From Patescibacteria group bacterium (GTDB lineage: Bacteria > Patescibacteriota > Minisyncoccia > Phycocordibacterales > EsbW-18), in the NCBI GenBank assembly GCA_038064475.1, contig JBBTTA010000003.1, positions 24,985 through 88,984 of the forward strand: 64,000 bases of DNA, in the 5' to 3' direction. Each line of letters starts with the position of its first letter. Positions within the stretch are counted from its first letter, which is position 1. The notes under the pieces are model-generated. The model had not been told where the DNA came from and searched no databases. It saw nothing but the letters and a program-made list of their open reading frames with translations. Of the stretch, positions 3,386-59,755 are shown piece by piece. Made by a program: the position numbers and the translations under genes.

Positions 3386-3484
3386 GAATGCATGATGACA
3401 TACTTTCAGAAAACAAAAACAGCTGCCGACGGCAACTGTTTTTGTTTGTGTTAAACACTCGGTGTTTAACATCTGGTATTGTCC

Positions 3485-3512
3485 TCTGTTCTCTGTTCTC
3501 TGTTCTCTGTTC
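3485..3512. repeat. Heptanucleotide tandem repeat (tctgttc)x4 between the surface-protein stop and capA start
   Basis: Four perfect units read directly, flanked by partial units. Confidence 0.9.
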
Positions 3513-6346
3513 TAGATTTCCCTGATGTCCGGTGATCCCTTCTCCGAATCATCGAGAACACTTGTGCAGTGAATATCCCCGCCGGCGCCTGGGGCATAGT
3601 CGATACCACCGTCACCGTCATTATCGAACCCGTCTGAACATTCAGTGACATCGCCCCCTGTGTCGTCATCCCCTTGTTCGTTATCGTCCAGCGCATCATC
3701 ACAGTGTGGATCATCGTCATTGTCTCCATCAATACCGTTTACACCATCCCAATCAACAAAGGTATCTGCATCATTGTCAGTACCGTCATTACACTGTGGT
3801 GCATTTACAAGAATCGTTACACTGTCACTCACATCGCCACTTTTATCTCCAGCTTCACACGTAATAGTGAATGTTGTATCACTTGAAAGCACTCCGGAAT
3901 CTTCTCCTTTCCCGCTATCATCACGACTTCCTGACCATGGAGGAATACCTTCGCTTGCTACACACGTTCCAGATGTAATTTCATTTGATTCCCATGTAAG
4001 TTCAACAACCGAATCAGTCCCTACAGGAGTTGGGTTGTCTGATCCATTGATCTTAAGATCAACTTCTGGTCCTCCAGGTGGAGGTGGTGGTGGCTCGGCA
4101 GTATAGGTAATCGTGTAGGAGATTGTTCCTCCACAATCAAGTGCTTGCGACGATGCTGGTGCAATTGATGGAGGAAGGTAGCCCTCGAGCGTTGGCACAT
4201 TTGAAAGAGTATAGTTACCTGCAAGTTGATCTGTGTATGTCTCTGAACTTTGGTTTATGTTTTCAGTAATCGTTCCACTTGGTCCAGACAATGACCATGT
4301 TGTTGGCACGTTTGATGACACAACAACTGTTCCCGCAGAACATGCTGGTTCTTCTTCTTCCACAGTAACGTAACAATTTGATGAGACGAGTGCATCACTA
4401 CCGACGTTCACTGTCTTCGTTCCTGTAGCAGAATATGAAACGGTAAATGAGGCCCCTGATCCGCTTGCAGGTGTTCCTCCAATTGCTGACCATGCATATG
4501 TGCTGTTTCCTCCTCGCGCCGTAAGCGTAACTGGTTGATTAACACCTACGGGTGGCTGACCGGCAGGCAAACATTCTGGACGAACACGTACCAGCACATT
4601 ATCGTTTACCCCCTGTACTGGTGGACCATTGCGTATGGCGTCACCAAAATAGTTGCGTCGAACAGTTGCTGCTGACACGTTTTGTGTTCCACTGTCTGCA
4701 ATTACTGCTACCCCCCAAAGTGTGTCGTTAGGGCTTGCTCCTTTACTTCGTGTTGTATCTGCACCCGAAGATGTCCACGATAGTGTTGGCACAACACCGT
4801 AGTTCACGAGAATTGATGTGCCATTGTACGCAACACCCGGAGCACTTGCACCAAGTTGGAATGTAAGAGGTGGTGGACCCGATGTAATGTTTATCGTACA
4901 TGCACCCGTCGCACCTGTGTCCGTGCGCGTAAAGGTGACCGTACGTGATCCTGTTGTTGTAAATGTTTTAGTGACAGATGATGCAGAACCGCTTGAGCCT
5001 GATGGTAAAATACCTGTCGTCGGAGAAATTGCCCATGTATGTGCCGCACCGCCGCTTGCTGTGAATGTCACACTATCTACATCTTCTTGTGCCGCTGTCG
5101 GGCCAGAGCATGTTACGTCTGTTGCGGGACAGGTGAGTGATTGTGGATTGTTCGAAAAAGCAACCCATTCATTCGTGTCTCCTTGTACTTCACCTGTAAT
5201 GCTATGAGCTACTCCTGTTGAAACAAGGCCAGCAAGGCTCGATGAGAATGTACATGATGCACCAACACAACCCGTTGCACCAGCTGTTGTTGATTTTACA
5301 AGTGTTCCATCAGAATAAATTCGAATCGGACGTGGTGCTGTTGTATCAACATCATCACCCCAACCAGTTACGGTACAATTTGCAAATGGTGGTGTGAATG
5401 CGCCTGTTGGCAAATCCCCCCCTCCAACCTCCACATTACACGTACTTGATTGTCCGTTCCGTGTCACTGTAACAACTTTTGTTCCTATTGTTGAATACGA
5501 AGTTGTACATGTTCCTCCTGTTGCACATGAACCTCCCCCCCCTGTATTCCATGTGTAGTACGGAGACGTTCCTCCGCTTCCTCCTGATGCTGTCACAACT
5601 GTATTTTGATCAGGGTTAACCAGAGAAGGGTTTGCTGAACATGATAGTGCTGATGGAGCCGTCACATTCACCGTAACGCTTTTATTCACCGTACCCCCAG
5701 GGCCTGTACATGACATTGAAAATGTCGTTGCGGTAGTGAGATCACTTGATGCATCGTTTCCTCCTGTTGCACTTCCTGTTGAAAACCCCGCACCCCCCGT
5801 TGCTGTACATGATGTTGTGTTTGTTGATGTCCACGTTAACGTTGTTGGTGTGTCTGATGTTACAGGGTTTGGAGACGCTGTAAGTGTTGCTGTTGGTGCG
5901 GGAGGGGCTGTAACAGTAACATTCACGGTCACTGAACCCCCTCCTTCAGGTGATGGATCTTCGACACAGTCACGATCAACACCGATAGCAAAGAGTGTGT
6001 CGGTTGTTAACACATCCGTTGTATACGAAAGCGTTCCAGGGTTTGTTGTGTACGTCAGTGTATGCCCAACAGGGTATGTGCGAGAGATATTGTATGGCGT
6101 AGCACCCGTACTCGAGTTGGTGAACGTGACAGGAAGTGTTGATCCTGATGATACGGCGATTGAATACACCGCATCGCGATTTCCTGCGCTGTTGGCATAC
6201 GTCGTCCCATTGATTGTCATACTCATGATAGGGACCGCCATTCCTGAACATACCTCTAGGGCACGTGCCGTGTTTGGGACCGCCATCCACACAAGTGCCA
6301 AAAGCGTACCGATACCAAGTAACGAATTTCGTACAATAGATTTCAT
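3512..6346 (-). CDS. Large secreted repetitive surface protein (944 aa), Thr/Ser/Gly-rich Ig-like repeats, C-terminal Asp-rich Cys-containing Ca-binding-like tail
   Basis: N-terminal signal peptide MKSIVRNSLLGIGTLLALVWMAVPNTARA; long low-complexity body; C-terminus CNDGTDNDADTFVDWDGVNGIDGDNDDD...CSDGFDNDGDGGIDY. Confidence 0.75.
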   Translation of the reverse strand: MKSIVRNSLLGIGTLLALVWMAVPNTARALEVCSGMAVPIMSMTINGTTYANSAGNRDAVYSIAVSSGSTLPVTFTNSSTGATPYNISRTYPVGHTLTYTTNPGTLSYTTDVLTTDTLFAIGVDRDCVEDPSPEGGGSVTVNVTVTAPPAPTATLTASPNPVTSDTPTTLTWTSTNTTSCTATGGAGFSTGSATGGNDASSDLTTATTFSMSCTGPGGTVNKSVTVNVTAPSALSCSANPSLVNPDQNTVVTASGGSGGTSPYYTWNTGGGGSCATGGTCTTSYSTIGTKVVTVTRNGQSSTCNVEVGGGDLPTGAFTPPFANCTVTGWGDDVDTTAPRPIRIYSDGTLVKSTTAGATGCVGASCTFSSSLAGLVSTGVAHSITGEVQGDTNEWVAFSNNPQSLTCPATDVTCSGPTAAQEDVDSVTFTASGGAAHTWAISPTTGILPSGSSGSASSVTKTFTTTGSRTVTFTRTDTGATGACTINITSGPPPLTFQLGASAPGVAYNGTSILVNYGVVPTLSWTSSGADTTRSKGASPNDTLWGVAVIADSGTQNVSAATVRRNYFGDAIRNGPPVQGVNDNVLVRVRPECLPAGQPPVGVNQPVTLTARGGNSTYAWSAIGGTPASGSGASFTVSYSATGTKTVNVGSDALVSSNCYVTVEEEEPACSAGTVVVSSNVPTTWSLSGPSGTITENINQSSETYTDQLAGNYTLSNVPTLEGYLPPSIAPASSQALDCGGTISYTITYTAEPPPPPPGGPEVDLKINGSDNPTPVGTDSVVELTWESNEITSGTCVASEGIPPWSGSRDDSGKGEDSGVLSSDTTFTITCEAGDKSGDVSDSVTILVNAPQCNDGTDNDADTFVDWDGVNGIDGDNDDDPHCDDALDDNEQGDDDTGGDVTECSDGFDNDGDGGIDYAPGAGGDIHCTSVLDDSEKGSPDIREI

Positions 6347-24270: not shown

Positions 24271-25185
24271 TTAATTCGAACGCTTCCCGTGGAAATTCTT
24301 GTGTACTTCTTTCAAGTGCCTATCAGTCACGTGCGTATATATCTGTGTCGTGGCGATATTGGCATGTCCCAAAAGCGCCTGAACGCTTCTGATATCTGCA
24401 CCGTTGCCCAAAAGGTCGGTTGCGAACGAATGACGAATGATATGCGGTGTCACTTTTTTGCTGATACCTGCTTTAATCGCGTACTGCTTCACCAAGCGTT
24501 CAACCGAGCGGGGAGTGAGGCGCAAATCTGAGGAATTTTTCGCATTTTTGCCAAGTTGTGCGAATAACGCATCATCGGTATCCGCTCGTTTGTCCAGATA
24601 TTTCTTTACCGAAGTTTTAGCCACATCTGATACGAACACAACACGCACTTTGTCGCCCTTTCCGCGCACCGAAAACTCCCCGCGTGAGAAATCGATGTCG
24701 CGCGACAGAGACACAATCTCTGATACACGCATGCCTGTTGAGAAAAGAAGTTCGAGAAGCGCTTTGTCGCGAAGGGATTGAACATCTTCACCTGACGGCT
24801 GTGCGAGTAGTCGATCAAGGTCTGTGTGTGAGATAAGATCGAGATCTCGATCACCGGTTTTCGCGAGTTCAATAACTTCAGGTTGTACAGTCTTGATATT
24901 TTTTTTACGAAGATATTTGAGAAATGCTCGAAGCGCAATCAAATAATAGTTTTGTGTTTTCTTTTTGAGCGTATTGTCTGTTGTCTGTTGTCTGTTATTT
25001 GTTGTCTGTCTATTAAGCCACAAACGGTAGTCGCGAATAATTGATTCTGTAATGTCCGTTGGGGAAGAGATTTTCGCGTATTCAAAAAAGCGCGTAAGGT
25101 AGCGGTCGTAATTTTCGATCGTCTTAATCGAGCGTCCGCGTTCGATTTCGAGATATTCTAGAAACTCTCTTTTGTACTTTTCCAT
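24271..25185 (-). CDS. Tyrosine site-specific recombinase, XerC/XerD type
   Basis: Start at MEKYKREFLEYLEIERGRSIKTIENYDRYL; catalytic region RHSFATDLL...LLGHANIATTQIYTHV. Contains an in-frame heptamer repeat (see 24974..25008). Confidence 0.8.
   Translation of the reverse strand: MEKYKREFLEYLEIERGRSIKTIENYDRYLTRFFEYAKISSPTDITESIIRDYRLWLNRQTTNNRQQTTDNTLKKKTQNYYLIALRAFLKYLRKKNIKTVQPEVIELAKTGDRDLDLISHTDLDRLLAQPSGEDVQSLRDKALLELLFSTGMRVSEIVSLSRDIDFSRGEFSVRGKGDKVRVVFVSDVAKTSVKKYLDKRADTDDALFAQLGKNAKNSSDLRLTPRSVERLVKQYAIKAGISKKVTPHIIRHSFATDLLGNGADIRSVQALLGHANIATTQIYTHVTDRHLKEVHKNFHGKRSN
24974..25008. repeat. Heptanucleotide tandem repeat (ttgtctg x4 plus variant ttatttg) inside the recombinase CDS
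   Basis: Read directly; encodes QTTNNRQQTTDN linker on the minus strand. Confidence 0.9.
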
Positions 25186-27631: not shown

Positions 27632-29155
27632 ATGGCTGATCAATCTTTTACACCACCATCATCAGGAGGAGCACAGGGAATGCCAACCGATCTTCCTTTC
27701 ACACCCACTCCATCTGCAGGTATCAAAACTATGCCGATGAGTCCATCTGAAGTACCTCAAAAACAAATTGAGGAAAAGCCAATTTTGCAAGAAATTACCT
27801 CTGCTCCACCTAACACAGCGCCCCTGGAGGCTAAGCCTCCAAGTCTTGGAGGCTTAGCCTCCAAGACTGAATTTGCTCCACTTCCACAAACACCTCAACC
27901 ACTTCAAACTCCTCCTCAACCACCAAACCGCATGACACACATCGTCATGCCACAGCCAATGCCGCCCATCCCAGCGCCTGTTCCTCAAGAACCTCAACAC
28001 CCCTCACAAATAGAGTCGTTCATTCCTGAACAAAGAAAACCTCAAATAGTTTCCCAACCAACACCTGTTCCACAAACACAACCTCGTGAAACAACAATTC
28101 CGATTCAAAAAATTCCTGACGTTCCTCGCACACCTGTGTCATACAGAGAACCAATTCTTGAAATAGACAAGGTACCGTTCGTTCCCGTGACACCACCGCC
28201 TCCACCTCCAAAACCCGCGCCACTTCCACCAAAAAACACAGCGATTCGCACACTGCAAAGCGACATTGCGGAAACAGTGCAAGGACGTGGTATATCTGTT
28301 GCCGATATTGCGCTTGCTGAACAAAAAAGATCAGCGGCGAGTGGCGAGCACACACACGAACCAAAACAACCAACCAACTGGTGGGCCGTTGGTGCGATGT
28401 TGTTTGTATTGTTGGGTGTCGGTGTCACTGCTTCTATTTTTCTCTTTGCACCAAAAACTCCTGTCGACATACTCGACACAGGATCTGGATCAAATTTTCC
28501 TGCAGACAAACAAACATCACTTGATGTGACCGAAATGACCTTTGATGGATTCACAAATACAGTGCGCGACACATTGTTTGCAGAATTTCGTTTGGGCACA
28601 TTGATGAGTGTCAGTCTTTTCGAACAGACAAACCTTGGAGAAAATATTTCAGTAAACACCGAACGGTTCTTTTCGATTACGAAAAGCCGTGCACCTGATC
28701 GGTTGATTCGCTCGCTTGAAAAAGAATTCGTGTTTGGTGTCGCAACCGTTGATACGCCGACAGGATTTCTTGTCTTCACCACACAAAACTTTGAGAATAC
28801 GTTCGCCGGAATGCTCGAATGGGAACCATTCATGGTTGATGACCTTCCTTTTATTGCACGCACGATTTTGCCTCCACCTATCATCACGCCTGAAGTCATC
28901 GTTGCAACAACAAGCACCTCGACACTCTCCGCTTCAACAACGCCGCCTATGGCGCCCGAGCCATTTGTCATACCTACTGCGGTCTTCAAAGATATTATTG
29001 TACAAAACGAAGATACACGTGCGGCTGTCTTGCCTGATGGCACCATTCGTTTGTTGTATTCATTCCCTGATAGAAACACACTCATCATTGCGCAAAGCAA
29101 AGAAACACTGACCCTTATTCTCGAGCGCATCAATACGGCACGCTTCACACGATAA
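27632..29155 (+). CDS. Pro-rich membrane-anchored hypothetical protein
   Basis: Start MADQSF at 27632 (RBS AAAGGA); long Pro/Gln-rich N-terminal region, one TM (WWAVGAMLFVLLGVGVTASIFLF), about 250 aa C-terminal domain. Antisense ORF 28105..29274 rejected. Confidence 0.6.
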   Translation: MADQSFTPPSSGGAQGMPTDLPFTPTPSAGIKTMPMSPSEVPQKQIEEKPILQEITSAPPNTAPLEAKPPSLGGLASKTEFAPLPQTPQPLQTPPQPPNRMTHIVMPQPMPPIPAPVPQEPQHPSQIESFIPEQRKPQIVSQPTPVPQTQPRETTIPIQKIPDVPRTPVSYREPILEIDKVPFVPVTPPPPPPKPAPLPPKNTAIRTLQSDIAETVQGRGISVADIALAEQKRSAASGEHTHEPKQPTNWWAVGAMLFVLLGVGVTASIFLFAPKTPVDILDTGSGSNFPADKQTSLDVTEMTFDGFTNTVRDTLFAEFRLGTLMSVSLFEQTNLGENISVNTERFFSITKSRAPDRLIRSLEKEFVFGVATVDTPTGFLVFTTQNFENTFAGMLEWEPFMVDDLPFIARTILPPPIITPEVIVATTSTSTLSASTTPPMAPEPFVIPTAVFKDIIVQNEDTRAAVLPDGTIRLLYSFPDRNTLIIAQSKETLTLILERINTARFTR

Positions 29156-31867: not shown

Positions 31868-32374
31868 ATGATTGATAGTGATTTAGCAGAGTTGTATGGA
31901 ATATCAACTGGCCGTCTCAATGAGCAGGTTCGGCGCAATCATGAACGTTTTCCTTCCGATTTTATGTTTGAACTTACACCAGAAGAAACCCGCTGTTTGA
32001 AGTCACAATTTGTGACTTCAAAACCTTCCGTCTCTTTGATATTCCAAAGTGGAATATCAAAAGAGGAGGGTTTGATATCGCAATTTGCGATATCAAAGGG
32101 ACGTGGGGGCCGTCGAAAACCTCTATTTGCCTTTACCCAGGAAGGCGTTGCTATGCTTTCGAGTGTTTTGCGAAGTCCTCGTGCGGTTCAAGTAAACATT
32201 GCTATCATGCGAGCTTTTGTACGTCTCCACGAAATACTTTCAACACACAAAGAGCTTTCAAAACGGCTTAATGAACTTGAAAAGAAATACGATGATCGTT
32301 TCCGCATTGTCTTTGAAGCAATACGAAATATGATGCAACACCCCGAACCACCACAAAATAAAATTGGCTTTTGA
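31868..32374 (+). CDS. ORF6N-domain protein; the N-terminal 21 codons lie in another frame (31806..31871)
   Basis: MIDSDLAELYGISTGRLNEQVRRNHERFPSDFMFELT is the ORF6N core; upstream short ORF MKAITLQTVSQQIYLIRGKRS matches the ORF6N N-terminus and joins via a TCATGA overlap, implying a 1-nt frameshift or split gene. Confidence 0.6.
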   Translation: MIDSDLAELYGISTGRLNEQVRRNHERFPSDFMFELTPEETRCLKSQFVTSKPSVSLIFQSGISKEEGLISQFAISKGRGGRRKPLFAFTQEGVAMLSSVLRSPRAVQVNIAIMRAFVRLHEILSTHKELSKRLNELEKKYDDRFRIVFEAIRNMMQHPEPPQNKIGF

Positions 32375-34018: not shown

Positions 34019-34087
34019 CCTCGCCCACAGAAAGTTCCGCGACTTTCTGTGGGCTTTCTGTTTCTGAAGGTTTAACCTTCATTTTTT

Positions 34088-34122
34088 GTTTTCTGTTTTC
34101 TGTTCTTTGTTTTCTGTTCTTT
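34088..34122. repeat. Heptamer tandem repeat (gttttct/gttcttt, 5 units) upstream of the UvrD/PcrA gene
   Basis: Read directly. Confidence 0.85.
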
Positions 34123-34153
34123 GTTACATGCTACATGTTTCGCGTTTTCTGCT

Positions 34154-36109
34154 ATGATGCGCGAAACGATGTCGCCCAAACTCAATCCCGCACAACAAGA
34201 AGCTGTCGAACACAAAGATGGTCCGCTTATGATCATTGCTGGTGCTGGTACAGGAAAAACACGTGTCCTCACACACCGCATCGCACGTTTGATTGAAAAA
34301 GGTGTACTGCCAGAAAAAATTCTTGCAGTGACATTCACCAACAAAGCGGCGCGCGAAATGCGCGAACGTTTGCAAACATTGCTTGGCTATCCTCTTGAGA
34401 GATTTTCTTCACGCAATCCATCTCCATTCATCGGTACATTCCACTCACTTGGTATTTTGATTTTGCGCGAGAATGCAAAGTTGCTCGGCATGCCGGTTCA
34501 TTTTTCAATACTTGATCGTGATGATTCACTTTCAATTATCAAACGTGCGGCAAAAGGACTCTCACTTGACCCAAAACGATTTCCTCCTGCGGCAATTCTC
34601 AATACAATTTCAAAATACAAAGGAGAAACGGTGTCGTTTGAAGAGTTTAGAAATGAATATGCGCATGACACATTCACAAAAGCAGTTGCATCTGTGTGGG
34701 AGAGGTATGCATCCGAAGTGCACAAAGAAAAGGTATATGATTTTGATGATTTGTTGTCAGAAACTGTTTCACTTTTGAAAAAATATCCTGATGTGCTTTC
34801 GCAATACCATGAACGTTGGAATTATTTGCATGTTGATGAATACCAAGACACGAACACCGTGCAGTACGAACTCATTCGGCTCTTATCTGGGGCCGTAAAA
34901 AACGTTTGTATTGTCGGTGACCACGATCAGTGTATTTACACGTGGCGCTCAGCAGACATCAGAAATTTGGAGAAATTTGAGAAAGAATTTACGGGGACAA
35001 AAGTGGTAACGCTCGAAGAAAACTATCGATCAACACAAACCATTCTCACCGCAGCAAACGATGCAATTCGAGAAAACACCGTGCGCAAAGAAAAGAATTT
35101 GTTTACAAATGGACGCGATGGAGAAAAAATTGAAGTGTACATGGGAGCAAACGAAGTTGATGAGTCTGGTTGGATTGCATCTCGTGCACAGGAATTAATT
35201 GATAGTGGTGTGTCTGCACACGAAATTGCAGTATTGTTCCGTGCAAACTTTCTTTCACGCGCGCTCGAAGAAGGTTTTTTGAAAGCGCGCGTTGCATATC
35301 AGGTGCTGGGCGTACGATTTTTTGAGAGAAAAGAAGTGAAGGATGTGCTCTCATACATCGGCGCAGCGTTGAATCCTGAAAGCGCGACACATATTGCACG
35401 CATTATTAACACACCGGCACGTGGTATCGGAAAAGTAACGTTGTTAAAAATACTTTCACACGACACAAGTAGTATCCCTGCAAAAACACAAGAAAAAATC
35501 GCACACTTTAGATCTCTTCTCTTACGCATCGCGGAGTACGCACTCTCACACAAACCGTCAGAGACAATTGCATACACCATTAAAGAAAGCGGACTTGAAC
35601 ATGAACTCAAAGGAGAGGGGGACGATGGTGCAGAACGACTCGCAAACATTCGTGAACTTGTGTCTCTCGCAACACGGTACGACACCCTACCAAACGAAGA
35701 AGGTATTCGTGTATTTCTTGAAGAGGCAATGCTTGCGAGCGATCAAGATGCACTCAAAGAAAAGGAAGATACAGTCAAACTGATGACAATCCATGCCGCA
35801 AAAGGTCTTGAATTTGAACATGTGTTTGTTTCTGGGCTTGAAGAAGGCCTCTTTCCTAATGAACGAAGTGAAATGCGGGACAAACCCGAAGAACGTGAGG
35901 AAGAGCGCCGTCTTTTTTACGTTGCCCTTACACGCGCAAAGAAGCGTCTCCACCTTTCGTATGCGATGATACGTACGATATTCGGAAGTCCAACCGTAAA
36001 TACCCCTTCACGATTTTTGACAGAAATTTCTGAAGATTTGGTTGAAAATGCAACGCCTGATGATAGCGGATGGGGGCTCGGTGGACGCGAACTTCTCTCA
36101 AACTGGTAG
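34154..36109 (+). CDS. UvrD/PcrA-type ATP-dependent DNA helicase
   Basis: Walker A IIAGAGTGKTRVL, VTFTNKAAREM, DEYQDTN, helicase motifs through VALTRAKKRL; exact start uncertain (Met at 34121, 34154 or 34169). Confidence 0.9.
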   Translation: MMRETMSPKLNPAQQEAVEHKDGPLMIIAGAGTGKTRVLTHRIARLIEKGVLPEKILAVTFTNKAAREMRERLQTLLGYPLERFSSRNPSPFIGTFHSLGILILRENAKLLGMPVHFSILDRDDSLSIIKRAAKGLSLDPKRFPPAAILNTISKYKGETVSFEEFRNEYAHDTFTKAVASVWERYASEVHKEKVYDFDDLLSETVSLLKKYPDVLSQYHERWNYLHVDEYQDTNTVQYELIRLLSGAVKNVCIVGDHDQCIYTWRSADIRNLEKFEKEFTGTKVVTLEENYRSTQTILTAANDAIRENTVRKEKNLFTNGRDGEKIEVYMGANEVDESGWIASRAQELIDSGVSAHEIAVLFRANFLSRALEEGFLKARVAYQVLGVRFFERKEVKDVLSYIGAALNPESATHIARIINTPARGIGKVTLLKILSHDTSSIPAKTQEKIAHFRSLLLRIAEYALSHKPSETIAYTIKESGLEHELKGEGDDGAERLANIRELVSLATRYDTLPNEEGIRVFLEEAMLASDQDALKEKEDTVKLMTIHAAKGLEFEHVFVSGLEEGLFPNERSEMRDKPEEREEERRLFYVALTRAKKRLHLSYAMIRTIFGSPTVNTPSRFLTEISEDLVENATPDDSGWGLGGRELLSNW

Positions 36110-36233
36110 TTTCTTGCTTAAAGTGTGGCAGATTGGTAGTTTTTTGCTTGAAGTATGTTTAGTGTACCCACCCTTGCGATGTCGAGTGTCGAGCTACCTA
36201 TTGTAATCGATAGAACCCAGATATGGTGACTTC

Positions 36234-36269
36234 AACTTTCAATTTTGACGATCGTCAAAATTGAAAGTT
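36234..36269. repeat. 36-bp perfect palindrome aactttcaattttgacgatcgtcaaaattgaaagtt overlapping the stop of the PaaX-like gene
   Basis: Read directly; shares the ttcaat...gacgatcgtc...attgaa core with 36849..36878. Confidence 0.9.
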
Positions 36270-36828
36270 ACAGGGAAAACCTTTTCCTCAGGACTTCATC
36301 TGTGTCAATTTTTTCAATAACGATATAGGCAATTTGGTTTTCAATATTTAAGATCTCTCTGAGCGAAGCAATCACTTCGTCGCATGGAAAGGGCGTGATC
36401 CAAACGCTCCGTTGAAAATACACAAAACCACACCTTTTCAAAACATCTCGAACAAGCGTTCTCTTGCTCCTTTCTCCTTCTGATATATCAAATGCAACAG
36501 CCCGCCACTTGCCGTCCCAAGGAACTTTTTGACTTACTCGGATATCTTTTGTTTTGTACTTGCCCAACAAATCCCTGCCCGATTCGCTTAAAATCACCAT
36601 TGGTTTTCGGCCTTTCCGTGAAATAACAAGATGTCCTTTCTTTTCAAGACGTTGTATTGCTGTGGCAATTTGAATTTCTTGTTGTTTTGCTTTTCTTGCG
36701 TTCATTTTTCGAAGAGTTTTCAGAATCAATACAGCATTTGGAGCTAAGATGGCGAGGGCAACAATTCCCCCAAGAGCCACAAGGGAAAGGACTGTCTTTA
36801 CAACAACGCCTTTTTTAAATTTTTTCAT
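36268..36828 (-). CDS. PaaX-like regulator (N-terminal TM helix, winged-helix, C-terminal Cas2-like fold)
   Basis: 186 aa; AIQRLEKKGHLVISRKGRKPMVILSESGRDLL wHTH; WDGKWRAVAFDISEGERSKRTLVRDVLKRCGFVYFQRSVWITPFP resembles PaaX_C/Cas2-like. Confidence 0.5.
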   Translation of the reverse strand: MKKFKKGVVVKTVLSLVALGGIVALAILAPNAVLILKTLRKMNARKAKQQEIQIATAIQRLEKKGHLVISRKGRKPMVILSESGRDLLGKYKTKDIRVSQKVPWDGKWRAVAFDISEGERSKRTLVRDVLKRCGFVYFQRSVWITPFPCDEVIASLREILNIENQIAYIVIEKIDTDEVLRKRFSL

Positions 36829-36848
36829 GAACGGTATTAGATTTTTAA

Positions 36849-36878
36849 TTTCAATCTAGACGATCGTCTAGATTGAAA
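36849..36878. promoter_or_regulatory. 30-bp perfect palindrome tttcaatctagacgatcgtctagattgaaa, 21 bp upstream of the PaaX-like gene start (candidate operator)
   Basis: Read directly. Confidence 0.6.
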
Positions 36879-36969: not shown

Positions 36970-37761
36970 ATGCAGCACCATCACGCAAAAAAACGACTCG
37001 GTCAGCACTTTTTGAAATCAACCAAAGCGCTCCATGCGATGTGTAACGCTGCGCACCTCTCACAGAATGATGTCGTACTTGAGATTGGTCCTGGGAAAGG
37101 AATTTTAACGCGCGAATTATTACAGAGCGGCGCACGTGTTGTTGCTGTTGAGAAAGATAGCGATCTTTTGCCGATCCTTACTGAAACATTTGTTGAAGAA
37201 ATAAAAAACAATCAGCTCACACTCATACATGGCGATGTGCGTTCGTTCGATCCAAACACACATGGGCTTGTTGAGGGAGAATACAAACTTGTCGCAAACA
37301 TTCCGTACTACATCACCGGAGAAATCATCTCCACATTTCTTGAACATGTTGCAGCTCCATCAACAATGATCTTGTTGGTACAAAAAGAAGTTGCTAATCG
37401 CATTGTTGCGCGAGATAAAAAAGAAAGTGTGCTTTCAATTGCAGTAAAAGCGTTCGGTACACCACGAAGTGTTGAGCGTGTTTCAAGAAAATATTTTTCT
37501 CCACCACCAAAAGTTGATTCTGCGATCATCGCAATCGAGAATATTTCACAAAAAAACTTCGCCTCTGTTTCGAAAAAAGAATTTTTCTCACTTCTTAAAC
37601 TTGGTTTTGCACAAAAACGAAAGAAGCTTGCGGGAAATATTTCGTCACGCATTTCAAAAGAAAAATTCGCAGCGTGGTGCGATGCGAATTCTGTTTCTCC
37701 CGATGTTCGTCCTGAAAATCTTTCAGTTAATCACTGGTTTTCTCTTGCGCAAATTCTCTAA
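36970..37761 (+). CDS. rsmA: 16S rRNA (adenine1518/1519-N6)-dimethyltransferase RsmA/KsgA
   Basis: GQHFL, VLEIGPGKGILTREL, NIPYYIT motifs. Confidence 0.9.
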   Translation: MQHHHAKKRLGQHFLKSTKALHAMCNAAHLSQNDVVLEIGPGKGILTRELLQSGARVVAVEKDSDLLPILTETFVEEIKNNQLTLIHGDVRSFDPNTHGLVEGEYKLVANIPYYITGEIISTFLEHVAAPSTMILLVQKEVANRIVARDKKESVLSIAVKAFGTPRSVERVSRKYFSPPPKVDSAIIAIENISQKNFASVSKKEFFSLLKLGFAQKRKKLAGNISSRISKEKFAAWCDANSVSPDVRPENLSVNHWFSLAQIL

Positions 37762-48828: not shown

Positions 48829-49562
48829 CGTACGAATCAAGAATCAAGAATCAAGAATCAAGAATTTGCGTTTTGTTTTTAGCGTGCTTCTTGTTTCTTG
48901 CTTCTTGCTTCGTTTTCGCGCGGAGCGCGATAGCACAGAATACTGCAACAGTTGATTTGGTATGGGAAGCAAACTCCTACGTGCCACCGTTCTATAAAGG
49001 TAAAGCCTTAACAACAACCGATGGAGATGTTGATGTATATGCATTTGTTCCAAGTACGTTTGGCAATCCGCTACGCGCAACATATACATGGGAATTAAAC
49101 AGCCAAGTACTTGGCAGTCTCTCGGGTGTAGGTAGATCATCATTGCGTGTTTCAGGTTCTCCTTTTATTGATGATCGTGCAATTAGAGTGCGTGTTGTTG
49201 GAGAGAATGGTCGTGAGGGTTTTGGATATGTACGCATTCCGGCGGTAAAACCAACTATCATGGTCTATGTTGATTCACCACTTGCTGGTGTGCAATTTGG
49301 AAACGCTGTGGTTACTCGTTTAGAAGCACAAACAGAGACCGATCTTACACTAACCGCATACCCATACTTCTTTTCAACATCAGATCGCAATGAAAATCTT
49401 TCATATACATGGAATGTAAACGGTGTTGCGTCAGAAACACGAGGACCAACACTTGTTGCGCGCTCTGAAACAACAGGGACGTCAACGGTAAGTGTTGAGA
49501 TAAACAATGTTTCTAAGATTCTTGAGCGTGCTTCGAAGATATTCTCTGTCGTTCTACAATAG
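48825..49562 (+). CDS. Secreted hypothetical protein with heptamer repeat in its 5' coding end
   Basis: ATGA overlap with the previous gene; n-region MTYESRIKNQESRI followed by h-region CVLFLACFLFLASCFVFA. Confidence 0.55.
   Translation: MTYESRIKNQESRICVLFLACFLFLASCFVFARSAIAQNTATVDLVWEANSYVPPFYKGKALTTTDGDVDVYAFVPSTFGNPLRATYTWELNSQVLGSLSGVGRSSLRVSGSPFIDDRAIRVRVVGENGREGFGYVRIPAVKPTIMVYVDSPLAGVQFGNAVVTRLEAQTETDLTLTAYPYFFSTSDRNENLSYTWNVNGVASETRGPTLVARSETTGTSTVSVEINNVSKILERASKIFSVVLQ
48834..48868. repeat. Heptanucleotide tandem repeat (gaatcaa)x4 plus variant, inside CDS codons 4-14
   Basis: Read directly; the ATG is at 48825. Confidence 0.9.
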
Positions 49563-49601: not shown

Positions 49602-50486
49602 ATGATAAATTTCAAATTTCAAATTTCAAAAAAAGCTCCTTCTTTCTTTTTGTTATTTGTTATTTGTTATTTGTTATTTGTGATTACGCTCCCTGTGTTT
49701 GCACAACAAAACCCACCAACGGTAGATCTCCTTGTTAAGGATTTACCGGGAATTGGCCCTGCTACAGATCTTAAGGGCTTTCTTCAGGGAATATTTAAAC
49801 TCACACTTGGTATTGCGGTCACCGCCGCTATAGCAATCATTGTGTGGAATGGTATTCGCTACATGGTGAGCGATGCGGTTGGTGGAAAAGAGGATGCAAG
49901 GAAATGGATTGGAGAAGCGTTGTGGGGATTGGTACTCGCATTTTCTGCTGTGCTTATTCTTTCAACAATAAACCCACAGCTTACACAATTTGATTTTCTT
50001 ACAACACTGCAAGAAGTGCGTGAAGCTGCTGGTGGTCCGCCGGGGGGTCCTCCCCCTCCTCCACCTCCACCAGGAGATACTCCTCCGGACGGACAATTTA
50101 CCTATCAACCTAGAGTAGCTCCACAACGACTACATGCGTCTTCTCAACTAGAAACATTATTAAGTTGTATTGCAAACAGGGTTCCGGGAAATGTTGGAGA
50201 GATTTCGTCAATATCAGACGAAATGATTACGTCGGGTCAAAGAACCTTTGAGGAATGTGCCGCCGGTGGACAATCTGTTGGATGTGCCCACAGAGCGGGT
50301 TCGCTTCACTATGGTGGATTATTTTGTGTTGGACAGTCATATGCTGTCGACTTTGGAGACGAACAAAATATGAATGTTCTTGGTGATGCGGCCGTATTGT
50401 GTAACCCAAACGTTGCAGTAATAAACGAAGGAAATCATGTGCACATAAGTTTAGGAGATAGTGCGGGTTGTGGACCAGGAAACTAG
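49602..50486 (+). CDS. VirB2/TrbC-like pilin-type membrane domain fused to a C-terminal LAS/M15-like zinc-peptidase-like domain
   Basis: Signal peptide, two hydrophobic helices (LTLGIAVTAAIAIIVW; ALWGLVLAFSAVLILS), Pro-rich linker, C-terminal CAHRAGSLHYGG...AVDFGD...NEGNHVHISLGD (SxHxxG / AxD / HxH pattern). Confidence 0.45.
   Translation: MINFKFQISKKAPSFFLLFVICYLLFVITLPVFAQQNPPTVDLLVKDLPGIGPATDLKGFLQGIFKLTLGIAVTAAIAIIVWNGIRYMVSDAVGGKEDARKWIGEALWGLVLAFSAVLILSTINPQLTQFDFLTTLQEVREAAGGPPGGPPPPPPPPGDTPPDGQFTYQPRVAPQRLHASSQLETLLSCIANRVPGNVGEISSISDEMITSGQRTFEECAAGGQSVGCAHRAGSLHYGGLFCVGQSYAVDFGDEQNMNVLGDAAVLCNPNVAVINEGNHVHISLGDSAGCGPGN
49641..49675. repeat. Heptanucleotide tandem repeat (ttgttat)x4 plus variant ttgtgat inside the signal-peptide coding region
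   Basis: Read directly; encodes LLFVICYLLFVI. Confidence 0.9.
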
Positions 50487-53106: not shown

Positions 53107-54474
53107 ATGCATCAAGGACCAGAAACAATTGATATCCGTACCCTTTGGAAAGAAGTTCTTGATGGTATCGAACCTACCATCTCAAAAGCTATCTTCAAGA
53201 CATGGTTTAAAGACACCCATATCGTCAAAATAGAGGATGGTACGGTGTTTGTGGGTGTACCTCACATGATGAGTAAGGATTGGCTTTCTACGAAGCTGCA
53301 TAAGCCTATTTTGAAGGGTTTACGGGAACATTCTGATAGTATTCGGGCCGCAGAATACATTATTTCCACAAAAGCCCCTGATGCTTCCCAGTCATCGGTT
53401 ATTATTCCTTCATACTCAAATGGCGTAGGGGAACTACCTCTCAAAGATCTCTATATCAATAAACTTGATAACCTCAATCCTCGCTACACATTTGACTCTT
53501 TTATTGTTGGATCATTCAACGAACTCGCACACGCAGCGGCACAAGCAATCCTTGAGCGTCCCGGAGCTCGCTACAATCCATTTTTTGTCTACGGACAAAC
53601 AGGCCACGGAAAAACACACCTTATTCAAGCTCTGGGAAATGAAATAAAGAAGCGAAATCCTGAAAAAAGAGTGTACTACGTTTCGTCAGAGCGCTTTGCA
53701 CAGGATTTAGTGAATGCAATTCAACTCAACACGGTGGGTGCCTTCAAAGAAAAGTACCGAAAGTATGATGTCTTCATTATGGACGACGTACAATTCATTT
53801 CAAATAAAGAAAAAACACAAGAAGAGCTTTTTCATTTGTTTAATGAGATTTACGATAGGAACGGTCAGATTATTTTTTCTTCAGATAGACACCCAAACTA
53901 CATTCCAAGCATCGCAGATCGTCTTAAGTCGCGTTTTAACGCAGGTATGACAGTTGATATTCCTGCTCCTGACTCTGAATCTCGTGTTGCAATTATTCGT
54001 TCAAAAGCAGCGGAAAACAATGTAGTTCTTTCAGATGAGGTTATTCAACAAATTTCAACAACAATCGATGGCAATATTCGTGAGTTGGAAGGAATTGTGA
54101 ACTCGTTGATTGCTCATATGATTTTGAAGAAGAAAGATTTGACGGTGTCTGAAGTAAAAGAGGCAATAAAGAACAATATCAAACCAAAACGTCTTGTCTC
54201 TGTGAAGGATGTGGTAAAAATTGTGTCTGGTTTCTATAACCTCGATGAGGAAAGTATCTATAAAAAGAGCCGTAAAAAGGAGGTTGTGAAGCCTCGTCAA
54301 GTAATTATGTATCTCCTTCGTGAAGACTATAGTCTTCCGTATCCTGCAATTGGTGAGAAGCTTGGTGGTCGCGATCATACCACAGTGATTCACTCATACG
54401 AGAAGGTGTGTGAGGATTTAAAAACAGATCATCAGTTGGAACAAGAGATCACACAGCTCCGTGGAATGCTGTGA
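53107..54474 (+). CDS. dnaA: Chromosomal replication initiator DnaA
   Basis: 455 aa; Walker A GQTGHGKTHL, sensor/box VII motifs, C-terminal DNA-binding domain HTTVIHSYEKV. Confidence 0.95.
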   Translation: MHQGPETIDIRTLWKEVLDGIEPTISKAIFKTWFKDTHIVKIEDGTVFVGVPHMMSKDWLSTKLHKPILKGLREHSDSIRAAEYIISTKAPDASQSSVIIPSYSNGVGELPLKDLYINKLDNLNPRYTFDSFIVGSFNELAHAAAQAILERPGARYNPFFVYGQTGHGKTHLIQALGNEIKKRNPEKRVYYVSSERFAQDLVNAIQLNTVGAFKEKYRKYDVFIMDDVQFISNKEKTQEELFHLFNEIYDRNGQIIFSSDRHPNYIPSIADRLKSRFNAGMTVDIPAPDSESRVAIIRSKAAENNVVLSDEVIQQISTTIDGNIRELEGIVNSLIAHMILKKKDLTVSEVKEAIKNNIKPKRLVSVKDVVKIVSGFYNLDEESIYKKSRKKEVVKPRQVIMYLLREDYSLPYPAIGEKLGGRDHTTVIHSYEKVCEDLKTDHQLEQEITQLRGML

Positions 54475-54697
54475 GTTCACAGTGGAGATTATAATGAAAA
54501 ACCTGTGTATATGAATGGAGAAAAAATAACAAAACAATCCTATATGAAAAGTTATCCAAGTTTCTCTCACATACAAACAGATGTTGTTCTTTTTGTCAGT
54601 AGAGAAAAAAGTATTATGGTGTCACATATAAAAGACTTGTACACATATCCGACACCTTAATAGTAATAATAATTTTCTTATATATAAAATAATACGT
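54475..54697. other. Candidate oriC (dnaA-dnaN intergenic) with DnaA-box-like sites and AT-rich unwinding element
   Basis: ttatccaag (54553..54561, 7/9 to TTATCCACA), tgtgtatat; AT-rich tagtaataataattttcttatatataaaataata at 54661..54694; rpmH-rnpA-yidC / dnaA-dnaN synteny. Confidence 0.45.
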
Positions 54698-55798
54698 ATG
54701 AAATTCAGTGTGAATAAAGACAGTTTTCAAACAGCAGTACTTAAAGCAGAGCGAATGACAGGAAAAAACCTTTCGCTCCCAGTACTTCGTTGTGTACTCT
54801 TGAGTGCAGAAAAAGATTCTGTTGTTATTCGCGCTACAAACCTTGATTTGGGAATTGAAGTAACTGTACCTGCACAAGTACAGCAGACCGGTGTTGTTGC
54901 TGTGCCTGCAGATATTCTCGGAAGTCTTCTGTCGTCATCAGGAAACGGCGGTACACTCACTGTTGAGCAAGAAGGTAGTCATATTACAGTTACCACAACA
55001 CACAGCACCACAAACATAAGTACCTATCCTAGAGAAGATTTTCCACTTCTTCCGAAAGTAAACGATACAGAGATGTTTATTGTTGTAGGAAAAGAGTTTG
55101 CAACAGCTCTCAGATCGGTTGTGTGGGCCGCATCAATGGCAAGTATTAAACCAGAACTTTCGAGTGTGTATGTGTATGGAAACGGGGATGAGCTTGTATG
55201 TGTTGCTACAGACTCCTTTAGACTTGCTGAGAAGCGTGTGCGAGCAAAGACAGGAAAAGAATTTGAATCTGTTCTTATACCACTTAAAAACAGTATAGAA
55301 CTTATTCGTTATACTGAAGGACTCTCTGGAGATATAGCGTTTTTTGGAGATACACATCAAATTGCTTCAAAAACAGAAGACACATACATTACATCACGTG
55401 TTATTGATGGGGTGTTTCCTGATTACAAACAAATTATTCCAAAAGAACACAGTACAGAAGCTGTTGTATTAAAACAAGATCTCTCTGACACACTTAAACA
55501 ACTTCGTATTTTTTCTGATCAATTTAATAAACTCACTCTCACTATTAATCCAAAACTAAAAGAGTGTGTTTTAAAAACAACAAATAATGATGTTGGAGAC
55601 AGTACCGTAACACTTGATGCCGCGCTTACAGGAGAATCAGCAGAAATGCACTTTAACCACGCATATATTCTCGACGCACTCCAAGCAATTCATACAGACA
55701 GTGCAGCACTAAATTTAAGTGGTGTTGGAAAACCACTTACAATTCGTTCAGTAGGAGATACGTCGTTTTTGTACATTGTGATGCCAATGAATCGCTAA
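54698..55798 (+). CDS. dnaN: DNA polymerase III beta sliding clamp
   Basis: 366 aa, three-domain clamp. Confidence 0.9.
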   Translation: MKFSVNKDSFQTAVLKAERMTGKNLSLPVLRCVLLSAEKDSVVIRATNLDLGIEVTVPAQVQQTGVVAVPADILGSLLSSSGNGGTLTVEQEGSHITVTTTHSTTNISTYPREDFPLLPKVNDTEMFIVVGKEFATALRSVVWAASMASIKPELSSVYVYGNGDELVCVATDSFRLAEKRVRAKTGKEFESVLIPLKNSIELIRYTEGLSGDIAFFGDTHQIASKTEDTYITSRVIDGVFPDYKQIIPKEHSTEAVVLKQDLSDTLKQLRIFSDQFNKLTLTINPKLKECVLKTTNNDVGDSTVTLDAALTGESAEMHFNHAYILDALQAIHTDSAALNLSGVGKPLTIRSVGDTSFLYIVMPMNR

Positions 55799-59128: not shown

Positions 59129-59144
59129 AAAGAAATAACAGATA

Positions 59145-59225
59145 ACAAAGAACAGATAACAAAAAACAAGGAACAAGACAGATTTTTCTGTTCTTTATTC
59201 TCTATTCTCTGTTTTTTGTTTTCTG
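59145..59225. repeat. Imperfect inverted block of heptamer-like repeats (aacagat/aacaaag ... tctgttc/tctattc) between yebC and ruvC
   Basis: Read directly; the two halves are approximate reverse complements. Confidence 0.7.
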
Positions 59226-59227
59226 TT

Positions 59228-59755
59228 TTAGGCTGCATTGGTGTAGATGTCTTGAATATCGTCGTGGTCGTGAAGGTCTTCCATAAGTGCACCAAGCTTT
59301 TCTTCGTCATCTTCCGAAAGTGTAACGGTGTTGTTTGGTGTGTACCCACCCTCGGCGTTTTTAGTGAAGGCCCACATGACAGATCCTTGTGTACCAAGTG
59401 ATGTGTTGTGTTCTGACAAGAGATGTTTTATTTCTTGCACCGTACGATTGTTGTTGTCGGTGAGTCCGGTGATGATGAGGGCACAGCCTCCGGGTCCGTA
59501 TGCTTCATACAGTACTTTTTCATCTGCCTGTGCACCCATGGCGGACGCAACAGCACGTTCAATATTTTCTTTTGGCATGTATGCCGCTTTTGCGTTTTCA
59601 ATTGCAGCACGAAGCATGGGGGAGTTTATGTCGCCTTTTGCAAGACGAGCCTCAACACGAATAAGTTTTGCGTATTTGGTGAAAAGCTTACTACGTTTTG
59701 CATCAGTCGCACCCTTCTTTTCTTTAATTTGTTTCCACTTATTGTGACCTGCCAT
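59228..59755 (-). CDS. YebC/PmpR family DNA-binding regulator
   Basis: MAGHNKWKQIKEKKGATDAKRSKLFTKYAKLI canonical N-terminus. Confidence 0.85.
   Translation of the reverse strand: MAGHNKWKQIKEKKGATDAKRSKLFTKYAKLIRVEARLAKGDINSPMLRAAIENAKAAYMPKENIERAVASAMGAQADEKVLYEAYGPGGCALIITGLTDNNNRTVQEIKHLLSEHNTSLGTQGSVMWAFTKNAEGGYTPNNTVTLSEDDEEKLGALMEDLHDHDDIQDIYTNAA

Follow-up and report, generated by a model that had tools for sequence, protein, structure and literature searches.

Why should a small bacterial gene be enclosed by two copies of the same long palindrome? The question is raised by a locus in a 64-kb stretch of Patescibacteria DNA (contig JBBTTA010000003.1, positions 24,985 to 88,984; assembly GCA_038064475.1), which we call the window and whose source genome was assembled from Hainich groundwater metagenomes. 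The gene (36268–36828, minus strand, stop codon included) is the sole open reading frame of its region and encodes a PaaX-like protein of 186 amino acids. An earlier interpretation, made from the letters of the window and hereafter called the sequence-only reading, had described a membrane-tethered regulator flanked by operator-like sites, either a self-contained module or a selfish cassette. Here we report that the palindromic bracket is the rule in a large family of Patescibacteria genes, and we consider it somewhat more probable than not that the cassette's own protein binds both sites and that the upstream copy autorepresses the gene.

Two palindromes enclose a single gene

The upstream site (O-up) is a 30-bp perfect palindrome at 36849–36878, TTTCAAT-cta-GACGATCGTC-tag-ATTGAAA, with the letters tttcaatctagacgatcgtctagattgaaa. 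It is separated by 20 nt from the ATG (36828–36826, minus strand), its centre lies 35 nt before the ATG, and its position and anatomy recur in homologous loci. The downstream site (O-down) is a 36-bp perfect palindrome at 36234–36269, AAC-TTTCAAT-ttt-GACGATCGTC-aaa-ATTGAAA-GTT, with the letters aactttcaattttgacgatcgtcaaaattgaaagtt, and shares 2 nt with the TAA stop codon (36268–36270). Neither site has a strand, and their centres are 612 bp apart. Both follow the pattern TTTCAAT-N3-GACGATCGTC-N3-ATTGAAA, in which N3 is cta/tag in one copy and ttt/aaa in the other, with symmetry kept within each copy. The two palindromes and their common core are thus as the sequence-only reading had reported them.

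The core GACGATCGTC occurs twice in the window, both times at the gene ends, where 0.04 occurrences are expected. No third match to the 22-base common pattern was found at up to three mismatches in the window, nor any in a further 10 kb of the contig, and looser scans with half-sites or boxes gave nothing convincing. The search for further palindromes centred on this core, which had been proposed as a check, therefore yields two copies in 74 kb, and exact-pattern scans of a genome collection and a metagenome collection found no copies of the window dyad elsewhere. O-up and O-down are also the two longest gap-free palindromes of the window. The paired palindromes are real and far beyond chance.

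The bracket is the rule in a large family

To follow the bracket beyond the window, we retrieved 80 homologous loci from one-genome-per-species assemblies and scanned their flanks (counts are given over 81 loci); a further 72 usable loci formed an independent metagenome set. Across 399 kb of homologous loci, the density of palindromes whose arms reach 12 nt or more is 24-fold higher in the 150 bp next to a gene end than elsewhere; 40 lie in these zones and 26 in the remaining ~375 kb, and most of the 26 are GC-stem terminators. The longest exact word common to the 220-bp upstream and downstream flanks reaches 14 nt or more in 47 of 78 loci, versus 3 of 312 cross-locus pairings. When pairing was defined strictly, by identity of the upstream and downstream site at 18 or more of 24 inner bases, 52 of the 81 genome loci are paired, rising to about 60 (~74%) after start-codon correction and inclusion of less perfect dyads. 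The metagenome loci behave likewise, with 47 of 72 (65%) paired.

What recurs is the arrangement, while each gene has a site sequence of its own. The sole recurrent part of the sequence is the centre, which is CGATCG, CGACCG/CGGTCG, CGGCCG, CTATAG or CCATGG, all of the form C-N-R-Y-N-G. The centre of the downstream site lies 16–115 nt past the stop codon, and the two centres are 598–814 bp apart (median 665 bp). Comparison with orthologous loci, another check that had been suggested, therefore shows the bracket kept in most of about 150 homologous loci; it is the rule of a large Patescibacteria family. One family-type dyad, AATTTGGTTTTTATTTACGATCGTAAATAAAAACCAAAAT with core ACGATCGT, was found at 4117–4157 of locus L040, between two unrelated genes and with no family gene within 5 kb; this orphan may mark a place from which a cassette was lost, or may serve as a remote operator.

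The family itself is extensive. An exhaustive HMMER search of 1.84 billion representative proteins returned 3314 relatives at E ≤ 0.001 and 1488 at E ≤ 1e-10, and among the top 150 almost every match is full-length, with 170–220 amino acids. A word-indexed single-sequence protein search returned the protein itself and one PaaX only. All titled genome matches are from Patescibacteria or are mislabelled as other groups, and several genomes carry two or more paralogs. Public labels for the family are ‘hypothetical’, ‘CRISPR-associated endonuclease Cas2’ (CRISPR, clustered regularly interspaced short palindromic repeats) and ‘DNA-binding transcriptional regulator PaaX’. Of these, the Cas2 label seems to be a systematic misannotation that could lead to overcounting of CRISPR components in Patescibacteria genomes. 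Full-text literature searches returned no paper that joins PaaX with Patescibacteria or with the term ‘Cas2-like’.

Anatomy of a site

The paired sites of 52 loci were aligned on their centres and each arm position was scored. Positions 2–4 are symmetric and the same in both copies in 46–52 of the 52 loci, and positions 10–17 in 35–45 of them. The stretch in between (positions 5–9) is relaxed, with a symmetry-breaking difference in one copy only in 11–18 of the 52 loci per position. Conservation decays at positions 18–19 and is at background from position 20. The site is therefore a dyad of about 38–40 bp, consisting of a C-N-R-Y-N-G core, a relaxed 5-bp spacer and outer boxes of 8–10 bp; core and outer box correspond to arm positions 1–4 and 10–19. 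The orthologous trio L008, L013 and L010 illustrates this anatomy, since the boxes TCTTAC...GTAAGA and the core ACGRTCG are kept while the spacer drifts.

On this comparison of aligned sites, the anatomy has the pattern that a protein footprint would leave rather than that of a hairpin, because a hairpin would not constrain most the two pairs beside its loop. The operator of Escherichia coli PaaX is TGATTC(N27)GAATCA (PMC9493321). In geometry and position, the span of our sites equals the 39-bp span of that operator. We also considered, and rejected, the idea that the sites are made directional by an asymmetric centre (GACC or GGTC), as the upstream and downstream copies are direct in about 13 cases and inverted in 10. 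In the 5′ coding region of the family gene of L012 (~2510–2525), the I-L-T-T-V codons of the hydrophobic segment read TTTTAACGACCGT; this 13-mer equals the left half plus the core of the palindrome of L012 itself, with a chance of about 1e-4 per locus.

The encoded protein is a mini-PaaX

The protein consists of a hydrophobic N-terminal segment (residues 12–36; 36721–36795, minus strand), a winged-helix region (residues ~44–100; 36529–36699, minus strand) and a Cas2-like PaaX_M domain (residues 103–176; 36301–36522, minus strand). The last is identified by Pfam (PF20803, E = 1.6e-18, 67 bits against a cut-off of 24, residues 103–176). The PaaX winged-helix model (PF07848) matches weakly (E = 0.009, 16.6 bits against a cut-off of 24.8) over residues 51–83 and profile positions 37–69 only. 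Pfam finds no match to PaaX_C (PF08223), the effector domain for phenylacetyl-CoA, and the protein stops at residue 186, directly after PaaX_M; a canonical relative (P0002) does carry PaaX_C. Neither of two NCBIfam models reaches its cut-off, with 49.2 bits against 264.55 for TIGR02277 (PaaX) and 18.9 against 24.5 for TIGR01573 (Cas2). Beyond weak Cas2 matches (in PADLOC, E = 3e-4 over 37 residues only), searches of the PADLOC and PHROGs libraries gave nothing.

Profile and structure comparisons agree on the fold. In hhalign, residues 51–186 align with a canonical PaaX-family protein at 98.3% probability, recognition helix and wing included. The AlphaFold model (50 homologs) has a mean predicted local distance difference test score (pLDDT) of 86.8, and shows a helix-turn-helix, a beta-hairpin wing, a linker helix and a beta-alpha-beta-beta-alpha-beta domain (strands 108–113, 136–139, 142–145 and 166–171; helices 117–132 and 150–160). 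Its best Foldseek match is E. coli PaaX (8a39, E = 2.6e-6), followed by Rv0674 and then by Cas2 and VapD structures (probability 0.8–0.96), and a sequence-profile search of the PDB agrees with these structural matches. The proposed winged helix is predicted by the model and aligns in its recognition helix and wing, with the PF07848 score below the cut-off; the relationship to PaaX and Cas2 is borne out. The Cas2-like fold of the C-terminal region stands too, with the correction that the domain carrying it is PaaX_M and not, as had been proposed, PaaX_C, which is absent. The PaaX literature names the Cas2-like domain as the dimerisation motif (PMC9493321), and we presume the same function for the domain here.

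Within the Cas2-like domain, F113-D114 (in an F-D-I motif) and Q139-x-S141 are invariant in the family, and align with the start of Cas2 strand 1 and with the Cas2 Q-x-S-V-aromatic motif, respectively. The Asp and Gln of these motifs are lost in E. coli PaaX and in a Brevibacterium relative. A single-sequence comparison had offered the archaeal Holliday-junction resolvase Hjc as a candidate for the C-terminal domain; we rejected it, as the match was not significant (E = 0.45–0.7), did not reappear in the profile search, and pairs a strand of Hjc with what is a helix in the AlphaFold model.

The hydrophobic segment replaces helices 1–2 of the PaaX winged helix. It carries a conserved G21 and an A-P-N motif, and its Kyte-Doolittle mean over 19 residues is 2.34 (family median 2.2); the model is uncertain here, with low pLDDT at residues 21–40. 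Both flanks are positively charged, +5 and +6 in the window protein and on average +3.0 and +2.4 in the family. From its hydropathy, the segment is likely a membrane anchor. The transmembrane helix of the sequence-only reading is therefore retained as a prediction from hydropathy. Its topology is ambiguous, given the two positive flanks, with which a re-entrant hairpin that has both of its ends in the cytoplasm would agree. We describe the protein as a mini-PaaX, that is, the DNA-binding part and the presumed dimerisation domain without an effector domain.

Each gene has its own site

The site is private to the individual gene, and the boxes of paralogs from one genome are unrelated (L012/L056, L013/L036, L014/L047 and L025/L040). 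The proteins of L012 and L056 are 82% identical, the DNA homology of the two loci is confined to the coding sequence, and their differences are concentrated in the winged helix (16 of 55 positions). Across all pairs, winged-helix identity is below 30% for most, versus about 49% for the Cas2-like domain, and the winged helix is the fastest-evolving part of the protein. Box similarity correlates with winged-helix identity (partial rho 0.105) and not with Cas2-like identity (−0.01). Where winged-helix identity is at least 0.6, box identity is 0.70, against a background of 0.35. This tracking, seen in comparisons between sequences, supports the encoded protein as reader; it is not decisive, as the pairs are not phylogenetically independent. 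No single host factor could serve sites that differ so much between genes, and the encoded protein is the obvious candidate for their reader.

The upstream site lies on a putative promoter of an apparently leaderless gene

A −10-like hexamer lies 5–9 nt before the ATG in 33 of 81 loci, versus 7 of 81 at a control position, and in 17 loci it ends exactly 6 nt before the ATG. Shine-Dalgarno-like motifs were found in 4 of 81 loci. As the −10-like hexamer lies so close to the ATG and Shine-Dalgarno-like motifs are rare, the genes appear to be leaderless. The hexamer starts inside the site, on the outer box, or just past the site; one subgroup has the form TTTTATAG-TATAAT-N6/7-ATG. In the window, the putative −10 element is TCTAAT (36836–36841, minus strand), 7 nt before the ATG, which would imply a leaderless or nearly leaderless mRNA, and O-up covers positions −50 to −21. 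With leaderless genes, the upstream site would be promoter DNA that is not transcribed, which would in turn remove the idea of a 5′ hairpin.

In E. coli, the Px promoter of PaaX is repressed by PaaX itself through steric hindrance (PMC9493321). By analogy with PaaX at Px, the position of the upstream site on the putative promoter fits repression by occlusion. The earlier description of the palindromes as operator-like has thus gained from their tripartite dyad, their PaaX-like 39-bp span, their place over the promoter of an apparently leaderless gene and their diversification with the winged helix.

A module without conserved neighbours

In the window, the gene lies between a UvrD/PcrA-type helicase gene (34121–36109), which is convergent and faces the cassette with its 3′ end, and a divergent rsmA/ksgA gene that starts at 36970. 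The neighbours of related genes vary widely. Among 65 upstream and 64 downstream neighbouring proteins, 81 and 89 different Pfam families were found, respectively, none of which is common to more than four loci; examples are SecA, FtsW, gyrase, aminoacyl-tRNA synthetases and ribosomal protein S7. These 129 proteins include no member of the paa enzyme families or the cas families, and there is no CRISPR repeat array in the window. Each locus has one family gene.

Further copies of a locus's own site are nearly absent, with one full copy in 261 kb of related loci. This extra copy is an imperfect third site in L022 (~1826–1860), which precedes the gene by 620 bp. Of 28 loci with a convergent next gene, as in the window, 24 retain the downstream site, versus 33 of 48 with a co-directional one (p = 0.17). 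With neighbours unconserved, no further sites nearby and the bracket kept in most of the ~150 loci, the proposal of a self-contained module agrees with what we find; a regulon, if there is one, would be distant.

Traces of insertion at some loci

With the palindromes masked, the outer flanks of each locus were aligned with each other, and flanks of different loci served as controls. A second direct repeat that encloses the whole unit was found in at least nine of 79 genome loci, with scores of 38–564; in the cross-locus controls the 99th percentile is 29 and the highest score 49. In the metagenome set, at least ten of 68 loci score above the null maximum, among them a 76-bp epimerase-like tail and, again, a tail of FtsW. 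Such footprints are thus present in about 15% of related loci, and the duplications are 24–302 bp in length.

The upstream copy of the repeat is the C-terminal coding end of a co-directional upstream gene, and the second copy lies 22–62 nt past the downstream palindrome. In L008 and L013, FtsW ends in ...RDDIHNEFLGGV-stop and the downstream copy encodes the same peptide; the FtsW tail in the footprint examples is NEFLGGV-stop. In L010, the upstream copy reads ...SQLQNEFLGAV-stop and the downstream copy ...SQLQNEFLGGG-stop. The SecA end of L016 (...KYKKCHGK-stop) is repeated downstream as the same peptide. Longer repeats occur in L071 (98 bp) and in L073 (302 bp, nearly identical and with a whole small gene inside).

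Where the two copies differ, the third codon position is preferentially affected (39 of 79, p = 0.004). Overall, 31 codon differences are synonymous and 28 non-synonymous, and short, well-kept pairs differ almost purely synonymously. In five of seven downstream copies the stop codon is in register. Such patterns would be expected had a related donor genome supplied one of the copies. Two candidate processes are an insertion at the 3′ end of a gene that supplies a replacement end, and homology-facilitated illegitimate recombination during transformation. Under either process, the inserted unit is the site-gene-site cassette with short spacers, about 0.75 kb in length.

The window locus has no flanking duplication. 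At the 3′ end of its uvrD gene, the last codon and stop (TGGTAG) and the next 18 nt form a tandem repeat with a 30-nt period (36104–36127 and 36134–36157; TGGTAGTTTCTTGCTTAAAGTGTG and TGGTAGTTTTTTGCTTGAAGTATG), about 77 nt from O-down; it recalls the 3′-end duplications of the other genomes, with both copies here on one side. Searches of Pfam, NCBIfam and PHROGs detected no recombinase, transposase or known nuclease motif in the single gene of the cassette. Recent mobility was not seen either, as copies of an identical protein from many samples share a single context (P0211, P0252). No empty site was found in the population of the window, where all contigs with an identical rsmA or family protein carry the cassette at one and the same position. 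In several lineages the positions of orthologs are stable; family proteins that are 74–87% identical sit in unrelated contexts. The suggestion of a selfish cassette is thus upheld in part, through the footprints in about 15% of related loci, and opposed by the lack of recent mobility and by the window locus itself, which has no footprint.

An argument for mobility from proteins that are 75–82% identical and share no neighbours is weakened by short gene remnants, among them a SecA tail that lies downstream in L016, L029 and L064. In one population (L098–L105), an 86-residue GIY-YIG gene upstream of a Lactamase_B gene is present or absent among contigs, beside the same family cassette; this gene is likely a homing endonuclease.

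A self-repressing cassette as the favoured explanation

We favour a cassette of about 0.65–0.75 kb that would be autorepressed, insulated and horizontally acquired. Its protein would form a dimer via the Cas2-like domain, with the winged helices reading the outer boxes and the core lying on the dyad axis. At the upstream site, the bound dimer would exclude RNA polymerase from the gene's own leaderless promoter. The downstream site would be held by the same protein, and that copy would most plausibly raise local occupancy via a loop of 600–700 bp, or block polymerases entering or leaving the cassette. In this way, a foreign gene placed between housekeeping genes would neither be driven by its neighbours nor disturb them. 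It could further be speculated that the hydrophobic N-terminus holds the protein and its bound locus at the membrane, or gives the missing input. Binding and autorepression, which we infer from the features described above, are on balance probable. We give any particular role of the downstream copy less credence than this core model; the two sites would probably cooperate, and the N-terminus may anchor the protein in the membrane.

Several observations weigh against this explanation. About a quarter of the loci have no detectable pair, and in some (L011, L070) the upstream site stands alone, so that the downstream copy is dispensable. The spacing of 598–814 bp shows no helical phasing, which would not be expected to matter at such a distance. 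For the window itself, the call of a −10 element is weak, as the hexamer has a C at position 2 and failed a strict filter. A normal signal anchor with the N-terminus inside would put the DNA-binding part outside the cell. Finally, differences between the two copies of a box are compensated within each palindrome, in 15 cases versus about one expected (positions 10–17); the cta/tag and ttt/aaa of the window are an example in the spacer. Such compensation is not predicted by dimer binding alone, and points to base pairing (in a cruciform or a hairpin) or to homogenisation of the arms by repair.

Alternative explanations

The palindromes could instead be the functional termini of a minimal element, mobile or integrative, with the winged-helix and Cas2-like protein as a recombination, nuclease or architectural factor. 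In an excised circle, they would then flank an attachment region, made of the copy of the host gene's 3′ end, like arm sites round a crossover core; in the integrated state they would enclose the gene. This would explain the 3′-end duplications past the downstream palindrome (at least nine of 79 genome and ten of 68 metagenome loci), the third-position bias and in-register stops of the copies (39 of 79 and five of seven), the unrelated contexts of proteins 74–87% identical, and the retention by the family of the Cas2-aligned Asp and Q-x-S that E. coli PaaX has lost. We nevertheless judge it unlikely, given that no recombinase or known nuclease motif was detected, that identical proteins share one context with no empty site in the population of the window, that orthologous positions are stable in several lineages, that the paralogs are diverged rather than identical copies and that the window locus lacks a flanking duplication. 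Moreover, neither the length nor the sequence of the duplications is constant, a variation that agrees better with homologous or illegitimate recombination by the host than with a site-specific enzyme. A bolder version, in which site-gene-site is a minimal integrative element and the Asp-bearing Cas2-like protein itself drives insertion and excision at the 3′ ends of housekeeping genes, is distinctly unlikely in our view; if true, it would be a case of a Cas2-like protein working on palindromic repeats outside CRISPR. Another host factor, a regulator or Xer-like recombinase, might bind the sites and leave the encoded protein as a passenger. Genes bracketed by Xer sites are known as pdif modules, and a dyad with a 6–8-bp centre superficially resembles the core sites of tyrosine recombinases. 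We regard this as improbable, as each gene has its own site sequence, same-genome paralogs included, site similarity tracks the winged helix of the encoded protein, and the best-kept part is the outer box (positions 10–19), unlike in Xer sites, where it is the bases beside the centre.

An ordinary regulon of two promoters, in which the upstream site serves autoregulation and the downstream one controls the next gene as its operator, gains from loci where the downstream site lies 40–90 bp before a co-directional gene with its own −10-like element, such as the gene starting MEKYNHK/MGKYNHK, possibly for leucyl-tRNA synthetase (LeuRS), in L012 and L025. Such a regulon is quite improbable, since the downstream site is kept before convergent genes, that of the window included, in 24 of 28 loci versus 33 of 48 for co-directional ones, and the next genes are unrelated housekeeping genes. 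It is very improbable that the palindromes act as RNA hairpins, a stabiliser at the 5′ end and a terminator or stabiliser at the 3′ end. Their predicted folds are strong (−17 and −22 kcal/mol, z about −5.8), and the downstream copy would be transcribed, so a 3′ hairpin could form as a side effect; yet the apparently leaderless genes put the upstream copy before the transcription start, no T-tract follows O-down on either strand, no terminator was called at either palindrome, and an Rfam search gave only a chance microRNA match below threshold. Symmetry that is strictest at positions 2–4 and relaxed at 5–9 also disagrees with hairpins. Lastly, the centres resemble 6-bp restriction sites (CGATCG, CGGCCG, CTATAG, CCATGG), which could recall palindromes related to restriction or a generic dispersed repeat like the repetitive extragenic palindromes. 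This idea is effectively refuted by the two copies in 74 kb, both at gene ends, by the empty exact-pattern scans of the collections and by the strong positional association in ~150 loci. The locus thus clearly differs from what would have spoken against the sequence-only reading, namely a generic repeat unlinked to the gene and a protein without the predicted fold.

Comparison with known systems

The cassette shares with E. coli PaaX (8a39), the repressor of phenylacetate catabolism, the order of winged helix and Cas2-like domain and the 39-bp dyad, and PaaX also represses itself. It differs from PaaX in having no PaaX_C and no paa genes nearby, a hydrophobic segment in place of helices 1–2, the F-D-I and Q-x-S motifs kept, two candidate operators that bracket the gene, no sign of a regulon and a TIGR02277 score far below the cut-off. 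With CRISPR Cas2 and VapD it has in common the ferredoxin-like fold, the Asp at the end of strand 1 and the Q-x-S-V-aromatic motif; unlike CRISPR Cas2, it scores below the family cut-off, has no cas1 or CRISPR array and is fused to a winged helix and a hydrophobic segment. The protein is neither a member of the PaaX equivalog family nor a CRISPR Cas2.

In phage lambda, the cI gene lies between the operators OR and OL, which loop and thereby sharpen autoregulation. The immunity region of lambda resembles our cassettes in that a repressor gene lies between two candidate operators of its own product. The operators of lambda are made of three short sites each and control outward lytic promoters, whereas here each end has a single dyad of ~40 bp and no conserved outward genes. 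Phage 21 and e14 insert at the 3′ end of icd and carry a replacement end. The two diverged ends of the upstream gene that surround the cassette in ~15% of related loci, with differences biased towards synonymous ones, recall this behaviour; in contrast to these elements, the insert is ~0.75 kb, has no integrase, has duplications of 24–302 bp and shows none at the window locus. Acinetobacter plasmids carry pdif/Xer modules, whose 28-bp sites (11-6-11) are common to all modules in a cell. These, too, are small units bracketed by palindromic sites with no recombinase gene inside, whereas the sites here are 38–40 bp, private to each gene and best kept far from the centre. The new elements are a protein made of a hydrophobic segment, a winged helix and a Cas2-like domain only, a private bracket of 39-bp dyads, the lack of conserved neighbouring targets and the insertion footprints.

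Other features of the window

Two related 25-bp palindromes, TTGAAGTCACAATTTGTGACTTCAA and TTGATATCGCAAATTGCGATATCAA, lie 75 bp apart at 31997–32021 and 32072–32097; they are operator-like, with a common frame and differing inner bases. A nested perfect palindrome on GGAGGCTAAGCCTCC / CTTGGAGGCT at 27825–27868, with 19-nt arms and a 1-nt gap, is the third-longest inverted repeat of the window. Short tandem arrays of 7-nt units were found at 3480–3513, 24974–25009, 34082–34125, 48834–48865, 49649–49685 and 59133–59229, with the units TTTTCTG, TGTTCTC, TTGTCTG, GAATCAA, TTTGTTA and AAATAAC; one array is just upstream of uvrD. The window also contains dnaA (455 amino acids) and dnaN (366 amino acids) at 53107–55798, and the chromosomal origin region is therefore probably nearby.

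Implications for Patescibacteria

Patescibacteria make up a large share of bacterial diversity, and gene regulation in them is almost uncharted. The family described here has thousands of members, often several per genome. As each gene has one private dyad of ~39 bp with a copy at each end, the family offers dozens of natural protein-operator pairs from which a recognition code for the winged helix could be derived, and they are candidates for ready-made, orthogonal repressor-operator parts. The footprints show a route by which accessory genes enter tightly packed housekeeping regions. The family also raises the question of why a streamlined genome should keep regulators that apparently regulate only themselves.

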